Shown in pieces: positions 13,311 through 27,502 of a stretch of 64,000 nucleotides of DNA (position 1 is the stretch's first letter; the number at the start of each line of letters is the position of its first letter). The DNA is from Escherichia phage Ec_Makalu_003: the sequence record MN882349.1, one strand, 5' to 3'. Under the pieces are notes generated by a model. That model saw only the letters and a program-made list of their open reading frames with translations, had not been told where the DNA came from and did no database searches. Made by a program: the position numbers and the translations under genes.

Positions 13311-13788
13311 CTAAATCATTGCAATATTTTAGTGCCTTAGTTTGAAACTCTGCGCTGTTAAGTTCTTCATAACGGTCATAATCACCGTTTAATGCTGCCT
13401 TTCTTGCTTCTTGTTCTATCTGCATGTCAGACATGATAATACAACGATCCCGCGATTTCATCTTCTCAAGTTGTATAGACTCTTCTTGTTGCTTGCGCAA
13501 TTCTTCTTGATGCTTCTTTTCTTCTCGTGCTTTCTCTTCCCGCGCTTCTTTGATTGCATCTTTGAACATCTGCGTTTGTGGTGCTAAACCAACTTTAACG
13601 CGATCCACGTCTCGACGTTCCATTTTAGAAATAAAACATGATTCGATCTGGTCATCGCTTGCATATGCTGCTTTACATTCACGAAGCAAGAAAACCGGAT
13701 CTGATTTAGCATTCATCATAGCTTCCATGTTAGTACAACCAGTAAGCATGAATGCAGCCGCAAGACCAATCAGTTTAATCATTTTCAT
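13303..13788 (-). CDS. lipoprotein, 161 aa
   Basis: signal peptide with lipobox LTGC; charged coiled-coil-like C-terminus. Confidence 0.6.
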   Translation of the reverse strand: MKMIKLIGLAAAFMLTGCTNMEAMMNAKSDPVFLLRECKAAYASDDQIESCFISKMERRDVDRVKVGLAPQTQMFKDAIKEAREEKAREEKKHQEELRKQQEESIQLEKMKSRDRCIIMSDMQIEQEARKAALNGDYDRYEELNSAEFQTKALKYCNDLAK

Positions 13789-14609
13789 TTAGTCACCTCA
13801 CCGAAAATTGTAAATTGTCTACGATTCTCATCGCCGAAAGATTCTACTACGTCGTTTACCTTGATGCAAGTCCCGCGCGGTAAAATTACTTCACATTCGC
13901 AAGGATTCCATGCAATAGACCCAACAACAAAACCTTTATGATCTTTTACGTCAATTACCCATGATACATTACAAGAATGTTGCATCTTTCCGGTCATTGA
14001 TTCATATCGATTCTCACAATAAAGGCTAGTGCTGTTTGAAAGCCATCCTCCAAAGATGATCGGTGTCATGCTGGTCGATACAAAGTTTTTAAAGGTAAAT
14101 TCCTTATCTTCAATAATACGCTCTATTGTCTGAATGTCAAGATGTTGACCGCGATAAAGAGTACCGTTTAACTTTTCGGTTTTATCCATGACACAATCCA
14201 TCAAATCGACAATCTCTGATATCTCATCGGTCATGTCTTCTTCCCCTAAGAGAGCACCATTTACCCATTCGTATTGTTCAGACACATAATCGCAGATTGC
14301 ATTATATTCTGCTGGGGTTATGTTGTTATGTTTGTAATGTTTGAATACATTATCTCCAAAATCTTCGGAATGTACTTCATACATCACATTAATGATTTTC
14401 TTGACAAATCCATAATCTTGCGTTTCTCGCTCAAGGAAACGGATAACTTTCACGTAATCATCAAAGTTAATATGATCGCTGATCATTTCAGTGATCATGT
14501 AACCATTAATCCCCTCAATGCCATATGTTTCGATGTAATTATCCATACGTTCCATCATTGATTCGCGTGATTCTTCGGAAAGGCGAAAATCCTGTAATTT
14601 CTTGAACAT
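13785..14609 (-). CDS. Alt-like ADP-ribosyltransferase paralogue
   Basis: R-S-E triad: LYRGQ, FVSTSMTPIIFGGW, CECEVILPRG, parallel to the motifs in the adjacent Alt. Confidence 0.7.
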   Translation of the reverse strand: MFKKLQDFRLSEESRESMMERMDNYIETYGIEGINGYMITEMISDHINFDDYVKVIRFLERETQDYGFVKKIINVMYEVHSEDFGDNVFKHYKHNNITPAEYNAICDYVSEQYEWVNGALLGEEDMTDEISEIVDLMDCVMDKTEKLNGTLYRGQHLDIQTIERIIEDKEFTFKNFVSTSMTPIIFGGWLSNSTSLYCENRYESMTGKMQHSCNVSWVIDVKDHKGFVVGSIAWNPCECEVILPRGTCIKVNDVVESFGDENRRQFTIFGEVTK

Positions 14610-14624
14610 TTTAAATCTCCCATA

Positions 14625-14660
14625 TAACAGAAAACGGGGCTAGTATAAAACTAGTCCCCG
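14625..14660 (-). terminator. terminator-like hairpin after alt
   Basis: perfect 10-bp stem cggggctagt/actagtccccg followed on the minus strand by a U-rich run. Confidence 0.5.
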
Positions 14661-14687
14661 TTTGAGTCAACCATTATTTCTTAAAAA

Positions 14688-16739
14688 TTACATTTTAAAT
14701 TTATCCGGCATAGCGTCTACAGACACAAGATCAGCGATAAGCTGACGTAGAGTTGCCTTATCTGCTTTCTTACGTTCGGTTTTAGCTTCGGTAATGAAGC
14801 TGGAGAAAGACAGGTCAGAAGCAGGTTTAACAACACCTTCACGGATGAATGCATCACCGTCCGCGATCATCTCACCAGATTCTTGTAATGCTGCCAGTTC
14901 ATTTTTGTTCATAATATGTGCCTCAATGTAATAAGTTTCTTGTGAATCCGTCGATGCCGTAGCACGAGTTACCGTATCAAAGGATAACACAACACCGCGA
15001 GGAAGTAAAATCTCGCATTCTTTGTAAGCAAATGCTTTGTTACCTACTGGCAATACAGGGATGTTTTCCGCGCCAGCAATGGAGAAAGCAACATTAGCGC
15101 CACCTTCACCGCGAGATCCAGCCATAGAATCAACACCAGCAACGGCACTAGCCACGTTTGCATTCCATCCACCAAAAATATTAGGTGCAAGGGAAGTGCT
15201 CACATAGTTTTTAAAGTAAAACGCTTTTTGCTTACGTGCAGTTTCCCACATTTGAGAACGGAAGTCCATACCACGATACAAGATAGTACCTGGATCAAGT
15301 TTAACACCATAGTTAGCAAATGCGTTATCCAGTGCATCACACATCTTGACCAATTCTTCTGGGTCTGCGATGCCTTCAAACTCTTCCAGCTTACGGTCGG
15401 TTAGGAAGTTGTTCATATTGATGTATGCTGCATCCGCATATTCGCTCAACACAAAACCTTCCGCGCCAGGCAGATCAAGATCAATATCTGCCATCATTTC
15501 ACCCATGTTGCTAGCAATTGCTTCAAACATACCGGAAGCAACATTACGCAGGGCATCGGTTTTAATCTGCGTGATGTGACTACGCAGCATTTCAGCTTTT
15601 ACATCTGCTGGCATAGACTGGTCGACGCGATCCATTGCCAGGGCGGTGATCTTGTTTTCGAATACTTCCTCGCTCATGATTTCTTTTAAGCGTTTGATTG
15701 ATGCTGCGATAACTTCCGCAGACAACGGATCATATTGATCCTGAACTTTTACCAGTTCGCTTACTGCATATTTTGCATCGGCTTCGCTTTCAAAAATAGT
15801 ACGCATGAAACCATAGCGAGTGATAATATCACTTGTCCAGTCATTCAGAGAACGGGCGGTTGAACGTTCTAAGGCTTGACGGTCAATCAGAGTATTAAAC
15901 TGTTTCTTAGGTTCTGCTTCGGTGATATCTTCTTCCGGTTTAAGATTAATTTTTTCTGGATGATTCACATAGTCGCTGTTATAGGTCGCTTGAGTTTTCA
16001 GCATTTCTTCTTTAGTCAAACGAGATTTAGCCGCTACGCGTTGTTCTGCTTCCGCGTTTCGTTCTTCTTCCGACACAAGACTAGCCGCATACGCCTCATC
16101 TTTAGTCAGAGATTCACCAGTAGCCTTAGATACCCAGCGATCACCTAAATCACTTTCTACTTTAGTGAACAGGGATTCATCGAGTTTAATCCCTTTAATC
16201 TTATCAATCGCCATCCCGCGACGTTTGACAACAACTAAAGCGATCTTTTTGCTGGTCATTACTTCCTGCTGGAATACTTCAAACTTCGGTGTACGACGCA
16301 CCAAACGCTCTATAACGCGCTTAACCAGTTCGGTCTTACCTTTCATGCGGGATACGTTAAAACGGAACATAACAGCGTCTAATTGCGCTTTACGGGCTGT
16401 TTCCATGACCACATCAAAAGCACTTGACATAACTGCAATCGGGTTATCTCCTAGACCATTTTTAAGCTGTACAATACGACCGCTTTTGTTCATTTCGCAC
16501 AGTACAACATGTGCGGTCTTGTCACCCATACGAATGATTTTAGGTGTTTTGTTGGTGAAGTTACAAAGACGGACAATCACATCTTTATCGCGTGTCTGTA
16601 CTGCAAAAAGCTGTTTAGGATTCTGCTTAGGCTTTAAGCACTGTACCGGAGCAATACTGCCAAAGTTTTCTTCCTCTTCCGTCAACAGCCATTTCTCGAA
16701 AGATTCAATCATTAGATCGTCGATTTCTAAGTTAAACAT
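14688..16739 (-). CDS. alt: Alt ADP-ribosyltransferase
   Basis: 683 aa (T4 Alt is about 682); R-S-E motifs LYRGMDFR, YVSTSLAPNIFGGW, KECEILLPRG; T4 position. Confidence 0.8.
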   Translation of the reverse strand: MFNLEIDDLMIESFEKWLLTEEEENFGSIAPVQCLKPKQNPKQLFAVQTRDKDVIVRLCNFTNKTPKIIRMGDKTAHVVLCEMNKSGRIVQLKNGLGDNPIAVMSSAFDVVMETARKAQLDAVMFRFNVSRMKGKTELVKRVIERLVRRTPKFEVFQQEVMTSKKIALVVVKRRGMAIDKIKGIKLDESLFTKVESDLGDRWVSKATGESLTKDEAYAASLVSEEERNAEAEQRVAAKSRLTKEEMLKTQATYNSDYVNHPEKINLKPEEDITEAEPKKQFNTLIDRQALERSTARSLNDWTSDIITRYGFMRTIFESEADAKYAVSELVKVQDQYDPLSAEVIAASIKRLKEIMSEEVFENKITALAMDRVDQSMPADVKAEMLRSHITQIKTDALRNVASGMFEAIASNMGEMMADIDLDLPGAEGFVLSEYADAAYINMNNFLTDRKLEEFEGIADPEELVKMCDALDNAFANYGVKLDPGTILYRGMDFRSQMWETARKQKAFYFKNYVSTSLAPNIFGGWNANVASAVAGVDSMAGSRGEGGANVAFSIAGAENIPVLPVGNKAFAYKECEILLPRGVVLSFDTVTRATASTDSQETYYIEAHIMNKNELAALQESGEMIADGDAFIREGVVKPASDLSFSSFITEAKTERKKADKATLRQLIADLVSVDAMPDKFKM

Positions 16740-17338: not shown

Positions 17339-17857
17339 TTAGTTATTTTTTAATTGCTCATCTTGCAATAATGCAATCACATGCTGGCGATGTTCTTCCG
17401 ATTGAGGAACACCGAAAAAGTTTGTTTTGTAGAAATACTCTAATCGGTCTTCTCGTGTGCTCTCTTCCATCATGATCGCGGGTAGTCCAAGATTTCGGAA
17501 ACGTCGCTTTTCTGCTGGCGTAAAATCACTGTAATACAACATAGAATCATCATTACCAGCAATGCTAAACTCATCCTTCATAAAGGAGAATATTGCGTTT
17601 AAACGCTGTTTACCGTCCACGATTTCGATCTCATAGCGAGAGCCATCATCAATCTTAGCCATTGCGATAGCACCAACCGGAAAATCATTAATCAGGTTTT
17701 CGATAAACATACGTTTGTTTTCGGTGTCCCATACCAAAGGACGCTGATAATCTGGGTTCATGTTGATATAGCCATCTTCTAACCACGCCTCATAAACAGA
17801 GATGACAAAGTTTTTAGTATTGGTATAGTAACGGCGTTTAGGCGTTAAACGGTTCAT
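17339..17857 (-). CDS. DUF262 / ParB-like (DGQQR-type) domain protein
   Basis: motifs DYQRPLVWD and VDGKQRL; ATG at 17857 with AGGAGA inside the upstream gene end (track start 17893 is a TTG). Confidence 0.6.
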   Translation of the reverse strand: MNRLTPKRRYYTNTKNFVISVYEAWLEDGYINMNPDYQRPLVWDTENKRMFIENLINDFPVGAIAMAKIDDGSRYEIEIVDGKQRLNAIFSFMKDEFSIAGNDDSMLYYSDFTPAEKRRFRNLGLPAIMMEESTREDRLEYFYKTNFFGVPQSEEHRQHVIALLQDEQLKNN

Positions 17858-17858
17858 G

Positions 17859-18191
17859 TTATAGTCTCCTGAATGGATCATCACGTAAATCAATATCTTT
17901 TAAGAACTCATCCCATGAATGGCGGATAATGTTCTTAATTCTCCAGATAAGCGCAGGGATTGAACGCTCTCCCATCTGGAAGTAAGGATCATATGATCCA
18001 TATGCCCAATATGCTACTACAATTCCACAATCGGCGCAATAATATTCTATTTCACTTGCTGGCGACCAAAGTCCATCAATATGATCACGGATCTTGCTTT
18101 CGATGTTATGGCTATGGCAATCAGGGCAACGGATGCAATGACCTTGTTTATCGTAATTTGACGTTAGCGAATACTTAAACAATCTCATCAT
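17859..18191 (-). CDS. zinc-ribbon protein, 110 aa
   Basis: CIRCPDCHSH...YYCADCG; coupled to both neighbours. Confidence 0.5.
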   Translation of the reverse strand: MMRLFKYSLTSNYDKQGHCIRCPDCHSHNIESKIRDHIDGLWSPASEIEYYCADCGIVVAYWAYGSYDPYFQMGERSIPALIWRIKNIIRHSWDEFLKDIDLRDDPFRRL

Positions 18192-18904
18192 AGATCCTTA
18201 TTGGCTTCAAATACTGCCTTTGCGAATCCTCGCGGGGTAAGTGACCTGATAGTCTTTGTTCTGGTTCCTTTCCCGCCTAGCTTAGAATGCTGTTTACTGT
18301 ACCCTTTATTAATCTGCAACGGTTTCTTTTCTGGCATTATAAAGCCTTGTCCGGTCCATAAGCAAGTCTTTTTCGGGTACATATCACGGGCGGCAATATA
18401 CTCAGGAAACGTAGGATGCTTATCATCTTCCGGCAAATAACCGCCATATTCCCACGGATGGAACATGTAATCAGGCTTACGCCACATGCTAGAGATAACG
18501 CTTACAGGATTCTCTATCATGTAGGGAACTCCTAGCCATTCACCCAAATAAGCGGTTATTTTAGCTGCCCTTACATCATGAACTTGAATTAATGGTCCTT
18601 GTTCTCGTTTCTTTCGTTCAAAGTGCGCAGCGCCACTAACAGCTAAATTGGTGCATGGTGGGAATGCAAAGATAATATCCGGTTTCCCCCATTCAAGGTC
18701 CATTGCTCTTTCCAGCCAATTTAAATCAATCCATGTGTTTACATATGTAATGTTTGGATGTTCAAATCTGGTATTATATTTTTTGTATGTACCGTGGTCG
18801 CCATCGTCAGCATTAAAGCAGATCACCTTATGACCTGCTTTAGCCCATTCTAACCCCATTATCCCCGATCCGTCAAAGTTGCAGAATATTAATTTTTGTT
18901 TCAT
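18188..18904 (-). CDS. minimal C5-methyltransferase-fold protein
   Basis: motif I-like FCNFDGSGIMG, motif IV-like FAFPPCTNLAVSG, motif VI-like YMIENP; only 238 aa with no obvious target-recognition domain. Confidence 0.55.
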   Translation of the reverse strand: MKQKLIFCNFDGSGIMGLEWAKAGHKVICFNADDGDHGTYKKYNTRFEHPNITYVNTWIDLNWLERAMDLEWGKPDIIFAFPPCTNLAVSGAAHFERKKREQGPLIQVHDVRAAKITAYLGEWLGVPYMIENPVSVISSMWRKPDYMFHPWEYGGYLPEDDKHPTFPEYIAARDMYPKKTCLWTGQGFIMPEKKPLQINKGYSKQHSKLGGKGTRTKTIRSLTPRGFAKAVFEANKDL

Positions 18905-24148: not shown

Positions 24149-24625
24149 TTATTTTTCTTGATGCTCGCGCTCGTACTTTTCGAAATAAAATTCTACTGGC
24201 TGATCGTGGATTGAAAGCAAGCCAAAGCGTTTAGCCGCACGTAATCCCATGTTACGTTGAATGTACTTCTGGAAGTTCTCGCGTATACACTTACGCCAGT
24301 ATTCTAAGCCCATACAGCTTTTGTAAAGATTGCATTGCACACAAGCCGGATTCATGTTGTCAAGTATATCGTGCTCCGGTTTATGCATTCCTACAACCTT
24401 ATACTTCCACGATCCATCATCATTACGGGCAATTCGTCCATTTTCATCATAGACTACTTTTGAGCGTCGCAATACTGGTTTGATGTGGTCTGCGTGCCAG
24501 CGATCCCCTAGTTCCTCGCCACAATAGGCACAACGCCCACCGTATTTCATTTTCAGGATCTGGCGTTGCTCTTTCTTTGACAATTTTTTAGGTTTAGGGG
24601 CTTTCGCCCCTTCATTATCACACAT
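24149..24625 (-). CDS. HNH endonuclease
   Basis: CAYCGEELGDRWHADHIKPV and NMNPACVQCN; start overlaps the DNA ligase stop by 8 nt. Confidence 0.7.
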   Translation of the reverse strand: MCDNEGAKAPKPKKLSKKEQRQILKMKYGGRCAYCGEELGDRWHADHIKPVLRRSKVVYDENGRIARNDDGSWKYKVVGMHKPEHDILDNMNPACVQCNLYKSCMGLEYWRKCIRENFQKYIQRNMGLRAAKRFGLLSIHDQPVEFYFEKYEREHQEK

Positions 24626-26114
24626 CGAATACCTCTTTTACTGTATTTGCAGTGGTCTTGTCGTAGCGAATACGTTTGATGATTGGGAGAAATAAAGAGA
24701 ACTCCGGTTCATCTTCTTTACGTGATTTGCTGCGGATATATCCGTTGCATGTCATCTCAATGACTTTTCCGATCAGGTTATGACGGTCAGCCCATAACAT
24801 TTCTCGGTCGAGTTCATTTCGACGATCGAACGGAATTACACGTTCAATACCATCATCATCTTTTTCGGTTGTGGTGTCGGTCAATCCCGATCCGGTGTTA
24901 GTCGTCATTCGTCCGCACGCACTACGGACAGTAAAACCGCCTACCTTGTTAGGATCTTTACTATGCGGATATACATCAACAATTTCCGCGTCGAAGTCAA
25001 TCACTTCTTTAAATTTAACCTGATCTTTACTGCGACGATCTTCAAATACACCATGTAAATTTTTAAGGATAATACCTTCTAATCCCATGTTGACATAACG
25101 ATGATATACTTCGCGAGCTTCATCGATATTGTTAACTACAGTGTTTTCGATTATCTGAACACGAGGATCGTTAAGTTCTTCAACAATCTGTTTTAGTTCT
25201 TCGAATCGATCTTTATATTGCTTCGTTGCTTTCTCGTTTCCGTAATACACATCACGGTCGATAACATCCCAGACAGTGTAAACAATACATTGGGCTTCTT
25301 CTTTTGGAATAGTTCCTTTCAGTGATTTGTTGAGGATACCATTTCCGGTCTGACGGTCTGCAACAACGGATTCTTTCACTGCTTCCGCTACTGGCGTTAA
25401 TGGCATTTCCTCTTCTTCAAATATCCATGATAGAGTACCATCATAAACGCTCTCAACGAAGTTCTGCGCTGGTGTTTGAGAAAGGGTAGGCATATATACC
25501 AACTCACCATCTAAAACAATTCCACGGCCTCGTAGACGCTCTAAAACAGCAAACAAATCATCCAGCCCCTGATAGGTATTACCTGAACGGGTATAGATTG
25601 CTAATGTTTCTCCGTCAATATCAGCCATACCACGAGCGCCATCGCTTTTAAGTTGTGCATACGCCGGATATTTGATATTGGCAATAGTCTTATCAGAACA
25701 TGACGATGCAAGGTGGCACGGCTGCTGAGGAATCAGCTTCTTCCATACCTTGTTTGCGGTGGTAGCGGAACAACCGCATTCCAGATCACGATTCAGGACC
25801 ATCATTGCAACTTTAGCATCATCTTCTGACAAGCAAGTCAGAGTATCGGTAACTAGCTGTAATGCAGCATTACCAGTTACTTGACGCGTGGCAAGTTTAT
25901 TTTTAAAGACCTGTAATGCACCGGATAAAGACAATACAGACGAATAGCGAGACGGTTTATCGTATTTCTTTACGCCAAACGTAACCTGCTTGCAATATGC
26001 CAGATAAAAGCATTCTTTCAGCGTTTCATTGCTTGCAGATTCTTTCAGGATCTTTTCTTTCAGCGATGTTTTGTCAGTGGCTGCAAGCTGATTAATGATA
26101 TTAAGAATTGACAT
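24618..26114 (-). CDS. 30: ATP-dependent DNA ligase gp30
   Basis: motifs QLKSDGAR (KxDG adenylation), VLDGELVY, RDLECG, as recalled from T4 ligase; ATG at 26114 (track start 26120 is a GTG). Confidence 0.9.
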   Translation of the reverse strand: MSILNIINQLAATDKTSLKEKILKESASNETLKECFYLAYCKQVTFGVKKYDKPSRYSSVLSLSGALQVFKNKLATRQVTGNAALQLVTDTLTCLSEDDAKVAMMVLNRDLECGCSATTANKVWKKLIPQQPCHLASSCSDKTIANIKYPAYAQLKSDGARGMADIDGETLAIYTRSGNTYQGLDDLFAVLERLRGRGIVLDGELVYMPTLSQTPAQNFVESVYDGTLSWIFEEEEMPLTPVAEAVKESVVADRQTGNGILNKSLKGTIPKEEAQCIVYTVWDVIDRDVYYGNEKATKQYKDRFEELKQIVEELNDPRVQIIENTVVNNIDEAREVYHRYVNMGLEGIILKNLHGVFEDRRSKDQVKFKEVIDFDAEIVDVYPHSKDPNKVGGFTVRSACGRMTTNTGSGLTDTTTEKDDDGIERVIPFDRRNELDREMLWADRHNLIGKVIEMTCNGYIRSKSRKEDEPEFSLFLPIIKRIRYDKTTANTVKEVFDV

Positions 26115-26580
26115 TTTCACCTCGTTTTGTTAAACGTTCACGAATATCATTTAGGATACTACAAAATTCCGATTCGGTCAATATGGTCTTTAACGGATCA
26201 GTTCCACCTATGCTATGACGCAATTTCTTATTTCCGGTAGCGAGCAATGCTTTACAAAAATCTGGGTTATTTCGTGCCATCGTAACAAATGCCAGATGTA
26301 CCAGTCTGTAATAATGCTCACTCATTCGATGAATCGGGCGACCCTGAAAATATAGCATGTGATTCTCTATCTTTTCAGTCCTTCCGGTTCTTTTTGCTTT
26401 GCAGCCGTGCATCAAAAAGATTTCTCTTTGTCTCTGAGGGTTCTTAAATCTTAGCCCCTGTAAAAATCCTTCTGTGCTGTTAATATCGCAACCAAATAGA
26501 CGGAATGGCCTTTTATTGAAATTACTCAACTCGCCAGATGGATAAGGTCCACCCGCATAGATATCAATTTCAGAAGTCAT
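26101..26580 (-). CDS. NADAR-like domain protein (YbiA-like)
   Basis: 159 aa; GELSNFN, STEGFLQGLRF, ALLATGNKKL and ILNDIRERL parallel E. coli YbiA as recalled; overlaps the ligase start. Confidence 0.55.
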   Translation of the reverse strand: MTSEIDIYAGGPYPSGELSNFNKRPFRLFGCDINSTEGFLQGLRFKNPQRQREIFLMHGCKAKRTGRTEKIENHMLYFQGRPIHRMSEHYYRLVHLAFVTMARNNPDFCKALLATGNKKLRHSIGGTDPLKTILTESEFCSILNDIRERLTKRGENVNS

Positions 26581-26780: not shown

Positions 26781-26806
26781 AAATATAGGCGGGATTATTT
26801 CCCGCC
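26781..26806 (-). terminator. rho-independent terminator after gene 31
   Basis: ggcgggattatttcccgcc hairpin followed on the minus strand by a U-rich run. Confidence 0.55.
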
Positions 26807-27181: not shown

Positions 27182-27502
27182 TTATTTATAAATTTCGACG
27201 ATCTGCGCTGGAGTCAGCCCGTCTACATTAATCAGACTATCAAGCCCAAAACTACGGAAACCTTCAACTGCAATTTCATATACTGGCAAAGATGTTTCTG
27301 ATTCTTTACGCGGTTTTTCTACATTAGGAACTAACCATTTTTCGTATGTTTCAAAAGGCATCAGTGCCGGATCTCGCGTGGCGATCATCTCGCGGACAGT
27401 ACCATCTTTCTTAGTAAACTGCAAAGAGTGAGTACCGACCGAAAACATTTTCTTTAGTGCTTCACGAAGTGCGATAATATCAATTTGTTCAGTCATTATC
27501 AA
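27182..27502 (-). CDS. hypothetical protein, 106 aa (31.x position)
   Basis: ORF between cd and 31. Confidence 0.5.
   Translation of the reverse strand: MIMTEQIDIIALREALKKMFSVGTHSLQFTKKDGTVREMIATRDPALMPFETYEKWLVPNVEKPRKESETSLPVYEIAVEGFRSFGLDSLINVDGLTPAQIVEIYK

Follow-up and report, generated by a model that had tools for sequence, protein, structure and literature searches.

The closest described system is that of bacteriophage T4, whose gene 30.3 product appears in the literature as AdfN, an ADP-ribosylglycohydrolase that acts on DNA and is specific for guanine (Schuller 2023; Cihlova 2024; Johannesman 2025). The name, for anti-DarT factor NADAR, was given by Johannesman et al. (preprint PMC11257639; Nat Commun 2025, PMC11825919). 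In vitro, T4 gp30.3 cleaves guanine-ADP-ribose on DNA, not thymidine-ADP-ribose (PMC11125620; PMC12945103); its activity on DNA carrying guanine-ADP-ribose is also covered in PMC11825919. AdfN is necessary for T4 and T2 to overcome DarTG1 and, supplied in trans, is sufficient for RB69. The RB69 protein itself was inactivated by a frameshift that removed its last 15 residues, which leaves this phage DarTG1-sensitive, and the substitutions E36A and K43A abolish the function of T4 AdfN (PMC11257639; PMC11825919). Independent transposon sequencing, in a preprint, showed that 30.3/adfN is dispensable on K-12, insertions being lost only on DarTG1 hosts (10.1101/2025.11.20.689424). Full action of T4 AdfN is seen only in T-even infection, and another phage factor is possibly needed (PMC11825919). 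The preprint proposed a dependence on hydroxymethyl-cytosine DNA; this was rejected in the published version, where the use of unmodified T4-GT7 revealed that the T-even requirement is independent of DNA modification (PMC11825919).

What tells phage NADARs apart as a family is His in the last strand, where the YbiA family has Glu and the BC4488/DarG1 family Asp (PMC11543638; PMC11125620). In DarG1 of E. coli C7, K95 coordinates the ADP-ribose phosphate. The K95R variant hydrolyses guanine-ADP-ribose (G-ADPr) in vitro but no longer rescues cells from DarT1 (PMC11543638). RNA G-ADPr is a further substrate of NADARs, and for some of them C-ADPr is another (PMC12945103). A phage NADAR that acts without catalysis has been reported, according to a study cited in the discussion of PMC11257639. 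A literature search for Krischvirus in combination with DarTG found no paper.

The window (the whole stretch of DNA that was analysed, 64,000 nucleotides) derives from a Krischvirus of the RB49/Phi1/GEC-3S group, family Straboviridae. In phages of the RB49 type, cytosine is generally regarded as unmodified. Over 4.5 kb surrounding the gene of interest, the DNA is 99.5% identical to Ec_Makalu_002 and 96–97% identical to about 58 further phages of the RB49/Phi1/GEC-3S group. An earlier note on this DNA, made from the letters alone, had described a 159-residue minus-strand ORF overlapping the start of the ligase gene and had proposed that it encodes a NADAR-like protein. The ORF exists as described (Table 1). 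Two of the three YbiA/NADAR motifs that were claimed, LSNF (L18-S-N-F21) and ALLATG (A111-L-L-A-T-G116), are present as written; the second was misread, being S-x-E-x-F-x-Q (S35-T-E37-G-F39-L-Q41) and not S-x-E-x-F-Q.

Table 1. Features of the 30.3 locus and of the ADP-ribosyltransferase genes, in window coordinates
Feature	Coordinates	Strand	Evidence or remarks
Second, short Alt-like ADP-ribosyltransferase, 274 aa	13785..14609	-	phrog_15144 E 2.5e-196; PF03496 E 1e-15
Alt ADP-ribosyltransferase, 683 aa	14688..16739	-	phrog_802 E 1e-179; PF03496
Gene 30, ATP-dependent DNA ligase, 498 aa from ATG	24618..26114	-	PF01068 E 2.8e-22; phrog_114 E 1e-141
30.3/ligase junction	26101..26123	-	GAGGTG 26123-26118; ligase ATG 26114-26112; 30.3 stop TAA 26103-26101
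Gene 30.3/adfN orthologue, single-domain phage NADAR, 159 aa	26101..26580	-	ATG start; stop codon within coordinates
C-terminal helix region	26104..26175	-	Residues 136-157 in AF2 model, plus tail
His122 codon CAT	26215..26217	-	Phage-NADAR residue; YbiA family Glu, DarG1/BC4488 family Asp
Arg44 codon AGA	26449..26451	-	Position of phosphate-coordinating Lys (T4 K43, E. coli C7 NADAR K95)
Glu37 codon GAA	26470..26472	-	Aligns with T4 AdfN catalytic E36 (Pn E43, C7 E88)
ORF215 (Phi1 name), 54 aa	26570..26734	-	phrog_15277 E 6e-42; stop overlaps 30.3 start by 11 nt
Terminator-like GC-rich hairpin and T-run	26788..26806	-	Consensus scan; separates gene 31 from ORF215, 30.3 and 30

The ORF is the Krischvirus orthologue of T4 30.3 (adfN). 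Its place in this T4-like genome is between genes 30 and 31, where the Phi1 RefSeq record, too, has the gene, labelled '30.3: gp30.3 conserved hypothetical protein'. The window and Phi1 share the order HNH endonuclease, 30, 30.3, ORF215, 31, 31.1, cd, cd.2, pseT; the T4 order is 30, 30.1, 30.2, 30.3, 30.4 ... 31, 31.1, 31.2, cd. Here 30.3 adjoins the ligase gene only because this lineage lacks 30.1 and 30.2. The earlier note knew of no T4 counterpart at this position, which was a mistake: BLASTP aligns the protein with T4 gp30.3 over its full length at 38% identity (E 4e-31), and the Pfam family to which it belongs is Phage_30_3. The note had read the domain correctly, but the family is not new. 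ORF215, which is conserved among phages (phrog_15277), has no similarity to T4 gp30.4. No minus-strand ORF of at least 40 aa lies inside 26101-26580, so the internal out-of-frame ORF 30.3' of T4 is not conserved.

On the minus strand, the 30.3/ligase junction reads ...ACGAGGTGAAAATGTCAATTCTTAA, in which GAGGTG forms a Shine-Dalgarno-like element ahead of the ligase ATG. The two genes overlap by 14 nt, and the Phi1 annotation has the identical overlap. Translational coupling of 30.3 and the ligase, as the earlier note proposed, would be compatible with this packing, although such tight packing is also ordinary for T4-like genomes. A scan for sigma-70 promoters directly upstream of the ORF215/30.3 block found none that was convincing. 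The predicted terminator between that block and gene 31 consists of the hairpin GGCGGGAAATAATCCCGCC, then TATATTTTGG.

Several neighbouring genes were characterized in passing. The start of the HNH endonuclease gene (24149-24625, minus strand; phrog_2118 E 8e-55) and the stop of the ligase gene overlap by 8 nt; the equivalent place in T4 is occupied by alt.1, and the HNH gene looks like a lineage-specific insertion of the homing-endonuclease type. The gp31.1 homologue (27182-27502, minus strand), which Phi1 labels only as conserved hypothetical, has a match in Pfam at E 1e-9 to WYL_2, an Sm-like SH3 barrel. Upstream of alt by a few kb, a 184-aa ORF (17339-17893, minus strand) contains only the N-terminal domain of a GmrSD-type restriction enzyme (PF03235 GmrSD_N E 5e-20; phrog_1583), as a phage-encoded fragment or a stand-alone DUF262-type domain. 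A 238-aa DNA methyltransferase (18188-18904, minus strand) was recognized by phrog_757 (E 2e-90), with no Pfam match at E ≤ 0.01.

Profile searches place the protein firmly in the gp30.3 family. Pfam PF08010, 'Bacteriophage protein GP30.3' (Phage_30_3), was matched with 133.6 bits (E 5.3e-39) against a curated cut-off of 36 bits, over profile positions 2-138 of 138, and phrog_652 was matched at E 2e-45. The homologues identified by tblastn span 1509 phage records, which are essentially those of T4-like phages infecting many different hosts, and an exhaustive HMMER search at E ≤ 0.001 recovered 977 cluster representatives at 50% identity. The two copies of 30.3 in the window and in Phi1 differ by 13 synonymous and 2 non-synonymous codons, which is consistent with purifying selection. 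A chance ORF can be discounted on these grounds.

The link to NADAR is far less evident from sequence. The direct match to the PF08719 NADAR profile is sub-threshold, at 14.9 bits (E 0.032) against a curated cut-off of 35.1 bits. NCBIfam yielded a weak match only, to the 'NADAR family anti-phage protein' model (E 0.017), and no PADLOC model matched the 159-aa protein. When a profile built from a family alignment (A1) was searched against PDB sequences, only YbiA was reached (E 0.015). The physiological role of YbiA lies in N-glycosidase activity on riboflavin intermediates and in swarming, not in anti-defence. Since sequence barely ties gp30.3 to NADAR, the fold was needed. An AlphaFold2 model built from 14 input sequences (pLDDT 94.1, pTM 0.89) has the NADAR core fold, a helical core with small flanking sheets. 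In a Foldseek comparison with viral models, gp30.3-type proteins came first, at a TM of about 0.9, and after them dozens of viral proteins annotated as NADAR. At the level of the predicted fold the NADAR assignment is confirmed, and the claim of the earlier note, marginal on sequence evidence, is borne out by the model together with the literature on the family. The C-terminal region of DltA (D-alanine carrier-protein ligase), the sole PDB match of a single-sequence phmmer search (E 4e-4) and one with a weak echo in NCBIfam, was dismissed as spurious, since NADAR structures are all that the high-confidence model matches.

Variation in architecture was seen among the relatives (P0022, P0065, P0079, P0143, P0061, P0069). 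Some carry two gp30.3-type NADARs in tandem, together about 290 aa long, and one member of the pair has N, A or Q in place of the lost catalytic Glu. Fusions of the domain were also seen, with a calcineurin-like phosphoesterase in P0069 and with BspA-type leucine-rich repeats in P0061.

The active site of the Krischvirus protein is intact apart from one position. The catalytic position, Glu37, is Glu in 163 of the 167 aligned relatives and invariant in the 15-sequence alignment A1. His122, the residue by which phage NADARs are recognized, is conserved to a similar degree (161/165 aligned relatives; invariant in alignments A1 and A2). The C-terminal helix, the region truncated in RB69, is complete, and in the BLASTP alignment the ORF extends 7 residues past the C-terminus of the T4 protein. 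The one active-site deviation from T4 is Arg44, where T4 has the phosphate-coordinating Lys (EGFLQGLRFKN here versus EGFLQGCKVKN in T4). Lys is found there in 152 of the 167 aligned relatives and Arg in 11. The Arg-bearing proteins fall into several groups with mutual identities of 30–50%, and the nearest relative of each group is of the Lys type, the other Arg groups being more distant; the change from Lys to Arg therefore arose repeatedly in the gp30.3 family. Most of these relatives keep both Glu37 and His122, and the substitution appears to be tolerated.

We consider it likely, with good confidence, that the gene encodes an active phage NADAR that strips ADP-ribose from guanine in phage DNA modified by DarT1-type enzymes. 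The host DarT1 would attach ADP-ribose to N2 of guanine in the phage DNA. The 30.3 protein would then bind the guanine-linked ADP-ribose and hydrolyse the N-glycosidic bond, and the DNA, restored to its unmodified state, could be replicated in cells carrying DarTG1. The protein would be expressed from a tight minus-strand block (ORF215, 30.3, ligase and HNH) whose stop and start codons overlap. We infer both the substrate, G-ADPr in DNA, and the anti-DarTG1 role from the experiments on T4 and on DarG1. The suggestion in the earlier note of a counter-defence against DarT-like toxins is, by homology with a T4 protein for which anti-DarTG1 action has been demonstrated experimentally, probably right. 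Several points were counted against this explanation: the presence of Arg44 for Lys, an identity of only 38% to the T4 protein that has been tested, the T-even dependence of T4 AdfN, the sub-threshold PF08719 match and the lack of a PADLOC match.

Arg44 is the basis of the alternative that survives best. It could shift the protein away from efficient reversal of G-ADPr on DNA, toward another ADP-ribosylated substrate, such as RNA G-ADPr or what some other host toxin produces, or toward action mainly by binding. The residue departs from the strongly preferred Lys, and the equivalent DarG1 variant, K95R, loses its antitoxin function in vivo (PMC11543638). The alternative targets have precedents in the NADARs that act on RNA G-ADPr or, in some cases, C-ADPr (PMC12945103) and in the non-catalytic phage NADAR noted in the discussion of PMC11257639. 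Against this, K95R remains catalytically active in vitro, the occurrence of Arg in several unrelated gp30.3 lineages, most with Glu37 and His122, suggests tolerance, and the gene appears to be under purifying selection with the rest of its active site intact. On balance we regard such a shift as unlikely. There is likewise a small chance that Krischvirus AdfN differs from T4 AdfN in substrate preference (for instance RNA G-ADPr or the product of another host ADP-ribosyltransferase), in potency or in co-factor dependence. The potency of the Krischvirus orthologue in vivo is, we stress, uncertain, because DarG1 K95R hydrolyses its substrate in vitro but fails to rescue cells. If Arg44 does have such effects, RB49-group phages might differ in their response to DarTG1. 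This natural Lys-to-Arg variant could provide a ready-made test of how the phosphate-binding residue affects NADAR efficiency in vivo.

Much less probable is the proposal, also made in the earlier note, that the protein erases marks set by the phage itself, that is, that it reverses modification of protein (on Arg) or of nucleic acid by Alt and the second Alt-like transferase. Both enzymes, which the note had placed at 13785-16739, are encoded in the window, as PHROG and PF03496 matches established, and NADAR is an ADP-ribose-processing fold. However, the transferase genes are about 10 kb away and not adjacent to 30.3. As gp30.3 (1509 records) and Alt are both common in T4-like phages, their co-occurrence is phylogenetic. 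No report of protein de-ADP-ribosylation by a NADAR was found in the papers examined, and nothing there links phage NADARs to protein Arg-ADP-ribose; those NADARs that were tested, T4 gp30.3 included, remove guanine-ADPr, not thymidine-ADPr (PMC11125620). T4 has Alt, ModA and ModB, yet its adfN is non-essential on K-12 and essential only in the presence of DarTG1 (PMC11825919; 10.1101/2025.11.20.689424). The proposal is thus unsupported. That the 30.3 protein is a YbiA-type N-glycosidase acting on intermediates of the riboflavin pathway, as metabolic housekeeping, is scarcely credible for an ORF whose PF08719 match is sub-threshold, whose His122 replaces the last-strand Glu that defines YbiA (PMC11125620) and whose T4 orthologue has a demonstrated anti-defence role.

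With DNA G-ADPr reversal against DarTG1 as the preferred reading, 30.3 in this phage is, in our assessment, most probably an ordinary anti-defence gene. It belongs to an already known family, which has a curated Pfam entry, is named as 30.3 in the annotation of Phi1 and has been functionally characterized in T4. The main value of the assignment lies in annotation: most of the 1509 phage records still say 'hypothetical protein' despite the demonstrated anti-DarTG1 function of the family. The inventory of the window gains one gene of a known counter-defence family.

Of the known systems, T4 gp30.3/AdfN is the most similar. The two proteins share full-length homology, the same Pfam family, a single-domain NADAR core, the catalytic Glu, the family His and the C-terminal helix, and their genes share the neighbourhood from gene 30 (ligase) to gene 31. 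The Krischvirus protein differs in having Arg44 and 7 extra C-terminal residues, and its gene has no 30.3' counterpart; it is directly upstream of the ligase gene and overlaps it, 30.1 and 30.2 being missing. DarG1, the DarT1-associated NADAR antitoxin of the BC4488 family (e.g., from E. coli C7 or Geobacter lovleyi 8BAT), differs in several respects. In contrast to DarG1, the Krischvirus protein consists of the core domain only, lacking an N-terminal extension, and has His for the catalytic Asp. Its gene has no adjacent DarT gene and no adjoining ADP-ribosyltransferase of any kind, its neighbours being the ligase and the 54-aa ORF. The protein is phage-encoded and would act against the toxin–antitoxin system rather than within it; in the absence of infection, T4 AdfN cannot substitute for DarG1 (PMC11825919). 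E. coli YbiA and the PF08719 family are set apart by the low profile score (14.9 versus 35.1 bits) and by His in place of the family-defining Glu. AdfN-Bas32 and AdfN-Bas60, NADARs encoded by T5-like and Vequintavirinae phages, likewise counter DarTG1. They fall in other clades of NADAR, were independently acquired and work without the T-even context (PMC11825919), whereas the protein described here belongs to the T4-type clade.
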